This document shows, in pieces, positions 4,676-12,802 of a DNA stretch of 64,000 nucleotides. The stretch's first letter is position 1, and each line of letters begins with the position of its first letter. Position numbers and translations under genes: made by a program. The stretch comes from a bacterium. GTDB taxonomy: Bacteria; Patescibacteriota; Minisyncoccia; UBA6257; Colwellbacteraceae. The stretch lies in the NCBI GenBank assembly GCA_021787205.1, contig JAJYME010000004.1:39063-103062 (forward strand), in the 5' to 3' direction. The notes under the pieces were generated by a model that was given only the letters and a program-made list of their open reading frames with translations, searched no databases and was not told the DNA's origin.

Positions 4676-5217
4676 TCTTTCCCGATCTGATCGATGACCC
4701 CCGATATCTTTTCCAGATCGTCTTTCGCTATCTTATCAAGGACGAAGTCTCCGGCTTTCAGCCTTTTCTCATTGCGAATGGCTGATTGCCCTCTGACACC
4801 TATTTTGATTCTTCTGAAATCATCGGAGCCAAGATGTTCGATGATTGACTTGATACCATTATGGCCACCCGAGGAGCCGCTCTTTGACGATTTCCATTTG
4901 CCGGCTTCTATGTCGGAATCATCGTGAATGACAATGAGATTTTCGATTCCGGCGTCAAAGTAATCGAGAGCCGATCTGACTGGATTCCCGGATTCGTTCA
5001 TAAAAGTTTCGGGAATGATAAAGATGATACTTCCCGCTTTAAGATATTTGAAGGGTTTTTTGCTTGGGGCGATAAAATCATCAAGTTTGGCGCCGGCGAT
5101 CCTAAAGACAGCGAGCCTGCCGACGTTGTGATAAGTGTTTTCATACTGGGTTCCGGGATTGCCCAGTCCGACTACGATTTTTACATCATCCTGCTTGCTT
5201 ATCTGAGAAGTAATCAT
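4666..5217 (-). CDS. pth: Peptidyl-tRNA hydrolase
   Basis: VVGLGNPGTQYENTYHNVGRLAV is the classic Pth N-terminal signature; the length is 183 aa. Confidence 0.85.
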   Translation of the reverse strand: MITSQISKQDDVKIVVGLGNPGTQYENTYHNVGRLAVFRIAGAKLDDFIAPSKKPFKYLKAGSIIFIIPETFMNESGNPVRSALDYFDAGIENLIVIHDDSDIEAGKWKSSKSGSSGGHNGIKSIIEHLGSDDFRRIKIGVRGQSAIRNEKRLKAGDFVLDKIAKDDLEKISGVIDQIGKEIK

Positions 5218-5260
5218 TACTATATAGATTAATACAAATAAATTTAATTTAGCAACTTAT

Positions 5261-5800
5261 ATGAATAAAAAGTTAAAGTCGGCTCTTATAGAAGTCGTCA
5301 GCATCATAGGAGTCGTATTTGTCCCTTTTATTATAATCCATCAGTTTGTCGCCAGACCTTTCTTGGTATCCGGAGCCAGCATGGAGCCTAATTTCAAGAA
5401 CGGAAATTATCTGATAGTCGACCTGGTTTCCTATCATTTGGGAGGATTAAAGGCGGGAGATGTGGTGATTTTCAAATATCCCGGAGATCTTTCCACCTAT
5501 TACATCAAGAGAGTCATCGCCTTGCCCGGAGATACGGTCAAGTTTTCCGGAGGGAAGACTTACGTCAACGGCAAAGAGCTCGATGAGGAATATTTGCCCA
5601 AAACGACTGACACTGAGTCGGTAAAGCGGGAGTTTGTTCTCCAAAAGGATGAATACTTTGTCATGGGAGACAACAGGGGCGCGAGTTATGACTCGAGGAG
5701 CTGGGGTCCGCTGCCAAAGGAAGATGTCATAGGGATAGTAAAGGTGAGAGTCTGGCCGCCGTTTGAAATATACAGAAATATAAACGATAATAAACAGTAA
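5261..5800 (+). CDS. lepB: Signal peptidase I
   Basis: The GASMEPNF (Ser box), VMGDNRGASYDSRSWGP and KRVIALPGD motifs are present. Confidence 0.85.
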   Translation: MNKKLKSALIEVVSIIGVVFVPFIIIHQFVARPFLVSGASMEPNFKNGNYLIVDLVSYHLGGLKAGDVVIFKYPGDLSTYYIKRVIALPGDTVKFSGGKTYVNGKELDEEYLPKTTDTESVKREFVLQKDEYFVMGDNRGASYDSRSWGPLPKEDVIGIVKVRVWPPFEIYRNINDNKQ

Positions 5801-12346: not shown

Positions 12347-12426
12347 GAAAATATTCTAACAGTTATCAACCTTTGTAGCCAGGGGGAGACGACCCCCACA
12401 AATCTTGACTGTTTGGTTAATTGGGA

Positions 12427-12432
12427 TATAAT
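12427..12432 (+). promoter_or_regulatory. Candidate -10 element TATAAT upstream of the intron-containing tRNA
   Basis: gggatataatg lies 36 nt before the tRNA 5' end. Confidence 0.3.
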
Positions 12433-12467
12433 GATTAGGTACCTAAAAGAGGGTATAAATCGAATAT

Positions 12468-12768
12468 TCCCCTGTAGCTCAGTGGTAGAGCGGCTCGCTG
12501 TGGCTTAACGCAGCCTCCGAAAGTAATTTCGGTTGAATAACAAGGTGAATTCGGGGAAGTCCTGACCCATAAAGACAGGATAATCCCGAGCCAAGCTCTG
12601 ATAATTATCAGAGAAGGTGTAGAGACTATCTCGAAAGAGAGTACTTTTCCGACGAACGGAACGGGAAGCGCCTTGCATCCATTTTGGATGATGATATAGT
12701 CCATCCCTTTTAGTAATAGAAGGACAAGTGTAACGAGATGGTCGTAGGTTCGAATCCTACCGGGGGAG
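12468..12768 (+). tRNA. tRNA (anticodon GUU, Asn, after splicing) interrupted in the anticodon loop by a 229-nt group I intron; CCA is not encoded
   Basis: 5' exon (12468-12501): TCCCCTG TA GCTC AGTGGTA GAGC G GCTCG CUGU. 3' exon (12731-12768): UAA CGAGA TGGTC GTAGG TTCGAAT CCTAC CGGGGGA G. The 7-bp acceptor and the D and T arms are intact. Joining the exons gives the loop CUGUUAA. The overall sequence closely parallels E. coli tRNA-Asn as I recall it, including the G73 discriminator. Confidence 0.7.
12502..12730 (+). ncRNA. Group I intron (self-splicing type) within the tRNA anticodon loop
   Basis: The conserved group I elements appear in order. P-like: GAAUUCGGGGAAGUCC. Q-like: AUAAUCCCGAGCC (UUCGGG pairs with CCCGAG, P4). 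R-like: GUAGAGACUAUC. S-like: GAUAUAGUCC (GACUA pairs with UAGUC, P7). Other features: a P2 hairpin CCGAAA-GUAA-UUUCGG; a P6-like 8-bp hairpin CUCUGAUA/UAUCAGAG; a P1 pairing of exon GCUGU with intron GCAGC with U-G at the splice site; a terminal G at 12730; and a possible P10 UAA/UUA. Confidence 0.8.
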
Positions 12769-12775
12769 CATAATA

Positions 12776-12802
12776 AAAACGAGGCGAAAGCCTCGTTTTT
12801 CC
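12776..12802. terminator. Rho-independent terminator downstream of the tRNA
   Basis: AAAAACGAGGC GAAA GCCTCGTTTTT. Confidence 0.6.

Follow-up and report, generated by a model that had tools for sequence, protein, structure and literature searches.

What kind of gene, and what kind of insertion, occupies positions 12468-12768 of the window (by which we mean the whole 64-kb stretch of DNA that was analysed; coordinates refer to its forward strand unless stated otherwise)? At this locus a tRNA gene is opened in its anticodon loop by 229 nt, and the identity of the tRNA, the nature of the inserted element and the capacity of that element to splice are separate issues. We are highly confident that the gene encodes tRNA-Asn(GUU), that it belongs to a member of the Patescibacteria near Ca. 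Colwellbacteria, and that a 229-nt ribozyme, ORF-less and probably of the IA type, splits it between U35 and U36 and would restore a normal tRNA. The gene lies downstream of ftsA-ftsZ. The closest named relatives of the FtsZ, at 63-68% identity, are found in Ca. Colwellbacteria, Parcubacteria and Paceibacterota (Patescibacteria/CPR), and the host is, to judge from this protein, a member of the Patescibacteria (CPR) near Ca. Colwellbacteria.

The two exons together make up a complete tRNA. The 5' exon (12468-12501, 34 nt) comprises the 5' strand of the acceptor, the D arm, the 5' strand of the anticodon stem and the loop bases C32, U33, G34 and U35, and thus ends GCUCG-CUGU, the CUGU end being common to 87/87 examined family members. 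After 229 nt the sequence resumes with UAA-CGAGA, that is, with U36, A37, A38 and the 3' strand of the anticodon stem, placing the insertion point between anticodon positions 35 and 36 (CUGU | UAA). The remainder of this 3' exon (12731-12768, 38 nt) supplies the variable loop, the T arm, the 3' strand of the acceptor and G73; the CCA of the 3' end is not encoded at the locus. Joining of 12501 to 12731 yields a 72-nt RNA that ARAGORN calls tRNA-Asn(gtt), with the 7-nt loop CUGUUAA, an anticodon stem carrying a single mismatch (G·A) at its top, and a U1-A72 pair and G73 in keeping with the Asn type as represented by E. coli tRNA-Asn. This predicted product is identical at 72/72 positions to uninterrupted tRNA-Asn genes on 8 metagenome contigs, 3 of them syntenic. 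The sequence-only reading had already proposed a tRNA-Asn split at 35/36 with these same boundaries, and the Rfam match and covariation described below, as well as the identity of the exons to intron-less genes of relatives, agree with it.

The inserted segment (12502-12730) is identified as a group I intron by its Rfam match, by covariation across P1-P9, by its minimum free energy (MFE) fold and by an intact core. The Rfam model RF00028 (Intron_gpI) scores 78.8 bits (E 2.4e-18), well above the gathering score of 50; the span of the match, 12409-12723, differs from the true intron boundaries because the model wrongly aligns its P1/P2 with promoter sequence and ends before omega-G is reached. 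Folded alone, the intron reaches -69.7 kcal/mol and beats 200/200 dinucleotide shuffles (z = -3.6), and its MFE structure yields P2, P3, P4, P5, P6, P7.1, P7.2, P8 and P9. Neither a sense ORF nor an endonuclease gene was found inside the intron. An antisense ORF of 89 aa running across it (12435-12704) is without a Pfam match and was treated as spurious.

[quoted passage not shown] The internal guide sequence GCAGC occupies 12510-12514, and the wobble U12501·G12510 marks the 5' splice site. The CUGU/GCAG pairs, U·G wobble included, are unchanged in 45/45 aligned sequences; the +1 pair that extends P1 covaries in the same alignment (AU 17, GC 13, GU 5, UA 2) and forms in 83 of 87 introns. P2 (12517-12532) is a 6-bp hairpin with a GUAA tetraloop, all of whose pairs (6/6) have changed on both sides, with 97% of cells paired. 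P3, which joins AAGGUG (12542-12547) to CGCCUU (12669-12674), is 100% paired in the 45-sequence alignment, with covariation at 3/6 pairs. P4 (UUCGGG/CCCGAG, 12550-12555 with 12585-12590) is likewise 100% paired and encloses P5 (12559-12564 with 12576-12581), the outer pairs of which are conserved while the inner part aligns poorly. The P6/P6a hairpin (12591-12617) consists of a 2-bp basal stem, an internal loop and a 7-bp stem closed by a 4-nt loop; a basal pair swaps C-G for G-C in the ratio 30:15, and 6/6 aligned P6a pairs covary at 99.6% pairing. The guanosine-binding helix P7, in pseudoknot with P3, is made by G-A-GACUA with its bulged A (12622-12628) and UAGUCC (12697-12702), the latter just preceded by a conserved J8/7 AUGAUA, and its 6/6 pairs (GACUA/UAGUC) are invariant across 45/45 sequences.

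Between P7 and the 3' strand of P3, the MFE fold places two further hairpins, P7.1 (12629-12640, GAAA loop) and P7.2 (12644-12665), both of them identical or compensated in a syntenic relative, L195. Hairpins P7.1/P7.2 at this position are the hallmark of subgroup IA. P8 (12676-12690, 5 bp) is 93.8% paired and covaries at 4/5 pairs; P9 (12706-12723, 7 bp with a GUAA tetraloop) is 95% paired and covaries at 6/7. The last intron nucleotide, omega-G (12730), adjoins the 3' splice site and is a G in 87/87 family members. No contiguous canonical P10 is present in 79 of these 87, the window copy included; many group I introns do without P10, and its absence does not bar membership. The sequence-only reading fared well on this fold. 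P1, drawn from the exon end and intron GCAGC with the wobble at the junction, the GUAA-capped P2, P4, a P6 hairpin, P7 and the 3'-terminal G are all there, and covariation in relatives backs the helices. Its possible P10 is not conserved, and what it described as a perfect 8-bp P6 hairpin is the 7-bp stem plus the 2-bp basal stem.

The covariation figures come from a MAFFT alignment of 45 sequences, made up of the window copy, L195 and a set of 43 short Asn introns drawn from many different phyla. Standard pairs fill 91.6% of the cells; sliding of the partners by 1-3 columns lowers this share to 36.5-45.2%, a difference that is inflated by the structure having been drawn on the window sequence. 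Counts of double changes are unaffected by this, and such changes occur in 59 of 89 pairs. The observed covariation score, 0.407, compares with 0.095 or less after sliding; 0/500 shuffles reach any of the observed measures. Covariation is strong in P2, P6a, P8, P9 and the tRNA stems, with the CUGU/GCAG part of P1 and P7 invariant. P5, P7.1 and P7.2 pair in 60-67% of the cells, because sub-families differ in these regions and the MAFFT alignment is weak there. A conserved group I core with a P3/P7 pseudoknot is backed by compensatory changes.

Where does the intron belong among those already described? A 35/36 intron in tRNA-Asn had struck the sequence-only reading as unusual, set against a list of bacterial tRNA group I introns (Leu, fMet, Ile, Arg) that is out of date: the class entered a catalogue in 2020 (10.1101/2020.01.27.920355), and its splicing was demonstrated for Patescibacteria in 2026 (PMC13011429). 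The locus is a further example of this known and biochemically confirmed class, and it comes from the phylum in which the class is commonest. In outline, the tFind survey of Williams (2020, bioRxiv 10.1101/2020.01.27.920355), a computational catalogue, raised the number of known tRNA/site classes to 21, from the four classical types. One of these, "Asn.4Ug", is defined, as cited in PMC13011429, by tRNA-Asn as host, anticodon-loop site 4, U at -1 and G at omega, and the window intron fits the definition so cited on all points. Nakagawa et al. (mSystems 2026, PMC13011429) found 15 tRNA-Asn and 3 tRNA-Asp genes with 35/36 introns among 95 complete Patescibacteria genomes; across 4,934 complete genomes they counted 28 introns at this site, 19 of them in Patescibacteria and 25/28 of subgroup IA. 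Their tRNA-Asn 35/36 introns self-splice in vitro in a GTP-dependent manner, exactly at 35/36 according to the sequenced product, and mutation of omega-G to C abolishes exon ligation (PMC13011429). The Patescibacteria introns of that study, of which GCA_016700035.1 carries a validated example, share with the window intron the host tRNA, the site, the U-1/omega-G rule, the phylum and a mis-call as Thr(UGU); they are also IA type with P7.1/P7.2 and mostly lack an endonuclease gene (PMC13011429). A P1-3'/P2 pattern (...GCAGCUUCC-hairpin-GGUUGAAAAAU) is common to the window intron and the Patescibacteria row of their Table S5. Three Asn introns in the same table, from Bipolaricaulota/Nitrospirota and classed there as IA1, have 67-70% identity with the window intron, and one of the introns in the table matches L051 of our alignment at 96% identity. 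The window copy differs from the published set in coming from a draft MAG outside their complete genomes and in being, at 229 nt, shorter than the 86 relatives examined.

One could envision a different pedigree, in which an IC3 intron of the lineage found in cyanobacterial/chloroplast tRNA-Leu(UAA) and Azoarcus tRNA-Ile moved into tRNA-Asn. The P4-P6-P7 core strings (AAUUCGGGGAAG, AAUCCCGAGCCAAG and GAAGGUGUAGAGACUA) are indeed close to the strings that Table S5 of PMC13011429 gives for IC3 tRNA introns, and these introns too are small ORF-less ribozymes of the anticodon loop that draw P1 from anticodon-loop bases. Known IC3 introns, however, sit at 34/35 in tRNA-Leu(UAA), at 33/34 in tRNA-fMet, at 36/37 in tRNA-Arg(CCU) and in Azoarcus tRNA-Ile, whereas the window intron sits at 35/36 in tRNA-Asn. 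They run straight from P7 to P3', without P7.1/P7.2, and their 3' domain (the P9 region) is built differently, whereas the window intron carries a 37-nt two-hairpin insert (12629-12665) between P7 and P3'. Taken with the IA1 labels of the published homologues and the predominance of IA introns at 35/36 (PMC13011429), this makes an IC3 origin very unlikely, and the IC3/Azoarcus-like identity was dropped on the strength of the two hairpins and these labels. The kinship to the trnL intron suggested by the sequence-only reading thus holds for the P4-P6/P7 core sequence and fails for the architecture. An IA assignment is the reading that we retain; membership in IA1 in particular is probable from the architecture and the labels of the homologues, with P7.1/P7.2 paired in 60-67% of cells across the alignment.

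Core sequences of this kind are not confined to tRNA genes. The two-part core motif by which we searched for relatives also occurs in 68 viral contigs, where it interrupts genes for major head protein, DNA polymerase and RNA polymerase, in some cases with HNH homing endonucleases. Such phage group I introns have protein-coding hosts, none being in a tRNA, and many carry endonuclease ORFs, in contrast with the ORF-less window intron and its tRNA host. A blastn comparison with a phage collection returned only 91-nt core matches at 75% identity, in Staphylococcus phages, and was uninformative.

Scanning of one-genome-per-species contigs with the same motif gave at least 120 matches. Among the 120 matches listed, at least 97 are tRNA-Asn 35/36 introns: 69 loci called Asn, 17 called Thr(UGU), 3 called Thr(CGU) and 8 partial loci with an Asn-type exon 1. 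The others listed include tRNA-Phe(GAA) 33/34, Tyr(GUA) 35/36, Leu(UAA) 33/34 and a few more. The Asn-intron loci among these matches include members of Nitrospira, Aminicenantes/Acidobacteriota, Eubacteriales/Clostridia, Deltaproteobacteria, Bdellovibrionota, Planctomycetota, Bacteroidota, Bipolaricaulota, Margulisiibacteriota, Rokuibacteriota, Actinomycetota and several Patescibacteria groups. The closest introns among them, at about 80-82% identity in global alignment, come from Nomurabacteria (L094), Colwellbacteria (L195), Ca. Stahlbacteria (L065) and Saccharibacteria (L007). Most of these closest relatives are Patescibacteria.

Within the clade, the ftsZ-linked locus is found both with and without the intron. 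L195, a Ca. Colwellbacteria MAG whose FtsZ is 68% identical, has a homologous intron of 284 nt at the same site in the syntenic ftsZ-linked locus, with compensatory changes in P2, P3, P5, P6, P8 and P9. L246 (FtsZ 68%) and L224/L276 (79% over core) have an identical tRNA without the intron, and ftsA-ftsZ lies upstream in all three. Both allele types therefore exist in the clade, a comparison of filled and empty loci that rests on an exact-identity count. Since syntenic loci are filled or empty at similar divergence with identical exons, since the sequence of two short-read contigs, from organisms more closely related, ends precisely at the 5' splice site, and since the P1 loop of longer family members contains an HNH-like ORF, one might regard the intron as a currently or recently mobile element in this CPR lineage, not a fixed passenger; we consider that reading unlikely, if conceivable.

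The existence of intron-less alleles in relatives also invites the suspicion that the window copy is a decaying relic or tRNA pseudogene that no longer splices, its task being performed by a separate intact tRNA-Asn elsewhere in the genome. In keeping with this idea, the intron is the shortest among the 87 family members examined, and the part of the genome inspected for tRNA-Asn genes is the 64-kb window. Its sequence, however, bears no mark of decay in the core: all invariant core positions are kept. Of the 132 alignment columns with at least 90% conservation among the other 44 sequences, the window copy conforms at 122, and its 5 in-intron deviations all fall at positions that still pair (93/113 in P5, 211/221 in P8, and 145 with 130 in P6), so that the core is intact and the deviations amount to compensated pairs. 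The exons, for their part, are identical to functional-looking genes. Strong predicted expression signals also flank the gene. Upstream is a predicted sigma-70-type promoter (12405-12432; TTGACT-16 nt-TATAAT, 11/12 consensus matches) that ends about 35 nt before the tRNA 5' end and is conserved in a relative (L193); downstream is an intrinsic-terminator-like hairpin (12775-12800) with an 11-bp stem, a GAAA loop and a 3' arm running into a T-tract (-16.1 kcal/mol, z = -7.1), which a consensus scan missed because the Ts are absorbed into the stem. Flanked in this manner, and lying between a hemerythrin and a NUDIX gene that are both on the opposite strand, the gene resembles an independent transcription unit; it appears to be transcribed between this promoter and terminator, which would be its own. 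No second tRNA-Asn was detected in the 64-kb window by ARAGORN without introns or by the Rfam tRNA model, in agreement with the sequence-only reading, and in the published Patescibacteria genomes picked for splicing assays the interrupted tRNA-Asn is the sole copy (PMC13011429). We therefore hold a relic to be most unlikely and return to a tRNA-Asn that is probably spliced and functional.

The remaining alternative shifts the splice register and, with it, the identity of the tRNA. ARAGORN in intron mode calls the locus tRNA-Thr(tgt) i(33,229), that is, a tRNA-Thr(UGU) with the same 229-nt intron placed 2 nt upstream, at 33/34, and splice sites after U12499 and G12728. A local repeat (..CU|GU|GG.. 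/ ..AAG|UG|UAA..) permits the Thr and Asn registers alike: with junction sequences of CU|GU|GG and AAG|UG|UAA, each register has a U at -1 and a G at omega. The Thr register is nevertheless scarcely credible, and the call was rejected on P1 geometry, family comparison and exon identity: U12499 makes a Watson-Crick pair with A12512, whereas the invariant wobble sits at U12501; the adjoining intron pair covaries in the Asn register and, lying beside the invariant CUGU/GCAG, fixes the register of P1; the G-Y-G intron end that the shifted register needs occurs in only 21 of 87 homologues, whereas CUGU|...G|UAA fits 87/87; and the Asn-register product is the one that is identical over its full length to intron-less tRNA-Asn genes, with a U1-A72 pair and G73 that suit the Asn type. 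The two-base artefact of ARAGORN/tFind is, moreover, documented, and was settled for homologous introns by sequencing of their spliced products (PMC13011429).

Splicing of the window copy at 35/36 is thus expected from its intact core together with the in vitro data on its homologues, and would follow the usual order of events. In the precursor, the guide GCAGC would pair with C32-U35 to form P1, with the U35·G wobble marking the 5' splice site. Exogenous guanosine bound in the invariant P7 pocket would attack after U35; the terminal G12730 would then occupy the same pocket, and the freed 3'-OH of U35 would attack after G12730. The exons would be ligated into a normal 72-nt tRNA-Asn and the intron released.

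Existing knowledge of group I introns and of tRNA biology is unchanged by this locus, the main value of which lies in annotation. Default tRNA finders miss the gene, as happened here with the Rfam tRNA model and with ARAGORN run without introns, and the intron-aware mode mislabels it as tRNA-Thr(UGU). Missed or mislabelled in this way, the gene would leave the MAG apparently without a tRNA-Asn and scored as less complete. The locus also adds one more, unusually compact, example to the tRNA-Asn 35/36 introns, and its syntenic filled and empty sites are usable for the study of intron gain and loss in CPR bacteria. As for the organisms themselves, it has been speculated that GTP-dependent splicing of a possibly sole tRNA-Asn may gate translation capacity in reduced genomes (PMC13011429).

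Eight contigs (L198, L208, L224, L234, L246, L276, L288 and L312) carry a tRNA-Asn gene that lacks the intron and matches the predicted spliced tRNA of the window at 72 of 72 positions. In L246 (5977-6000, minus strand), L224 (5078-5101, minus strand) and L276, this gene lies near ftsZ, with ftsA-ftsZ upstream as in the window; these three loci are therefore empty-site alleles in related CPR genomes. A filled allele occurs at L195, a Ca. Colwellbacteria locus syntenic with the window, where tRNA-Asn (5216-5571, plus strand) is split at 35/36 by an intron of 284 nt whose P1 loop is expanded by about 58 nt. ARAGORN mis-calls this gene as tRNA-His(gtg) i(37,269). Two short-read Logan contigs come from closer kin of the window genome, their FtsZ proteins being 89% (L193) and 74% (L194) identical to the window's. 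Both end exactly on the final nucleotide of the tRNA-Asn 5' exon (...CTGT; L193:5253-5357 and L194:3961-3998), that is, at the 5' splice site. Such a precise stop suggests an assembly-graph branch at this site, arising either from the joint presence of filled and empty alleles or from different introns inserted on one conserved exon.

Longer members of the family (536-689 nt; for example L032, L038, L086, L100 and L102) have an open reading frame of about 105-125 codons in the P1-loop region. The product has a CxxC...HH...CANCHREVH signature and matches Pfam HNH weakly (E 6.7e-4; 20.2 bits, under the 21.4 cutoff); a small homing endonuclease of the HNH type is its probable identity. The window intron has no such HNH-like reading frame.

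Introns in other tRNA genes share the core motif of the family: tRNA-Phe(GAA) at 33/34 (L003, L019, L029, L061, L085, L088 and L114), tRNA-Leu(UAA) at 33/34 (L034 and L054) and tRNA-Tyr(GUA) at 35/36 (L096 and L109). The tRNA-Tyr loop has the same CUGU sequence that the GCAGC guide targets in tRNA-Asn. The motif is present as well in 68 viral contigs from IMG/VR (L121-L188), in none of which it is located in a tRNA. Among those sampled, the interrupted genes encode a phage major head protein (L121 and L123), DNA polymerase (L124) and RNA polymerase (L125), the last contig additionally bearing an HNH homing endonuclease gene (phrog_655, E 1e-31).

At 12768-12772, the tRNA-Asn gene of the window does not encode the 3' CCA, G73 being followed by CAUAA; its host would need a CCA-adding enzyme. 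By contrast, GAGCCA is encoded by many of the homologues found in other phyla. The scan for Asn-type introns, a sample biased by the search motif, gave at least 120 species-level matches (L001-L120). Since most among the matches listed lie outside Patescibacteria (in Nitrospirota, Acidobacteriota/Aminicenantes, Bacillota, Desulfobacterota-like, Planctomycetota and other phyla), the Asn-type class may be less Patescibacteria-specific in draft MAGs than it appeared in the complete genomes surveyed by Nakagawa et al. (PMC13011429).
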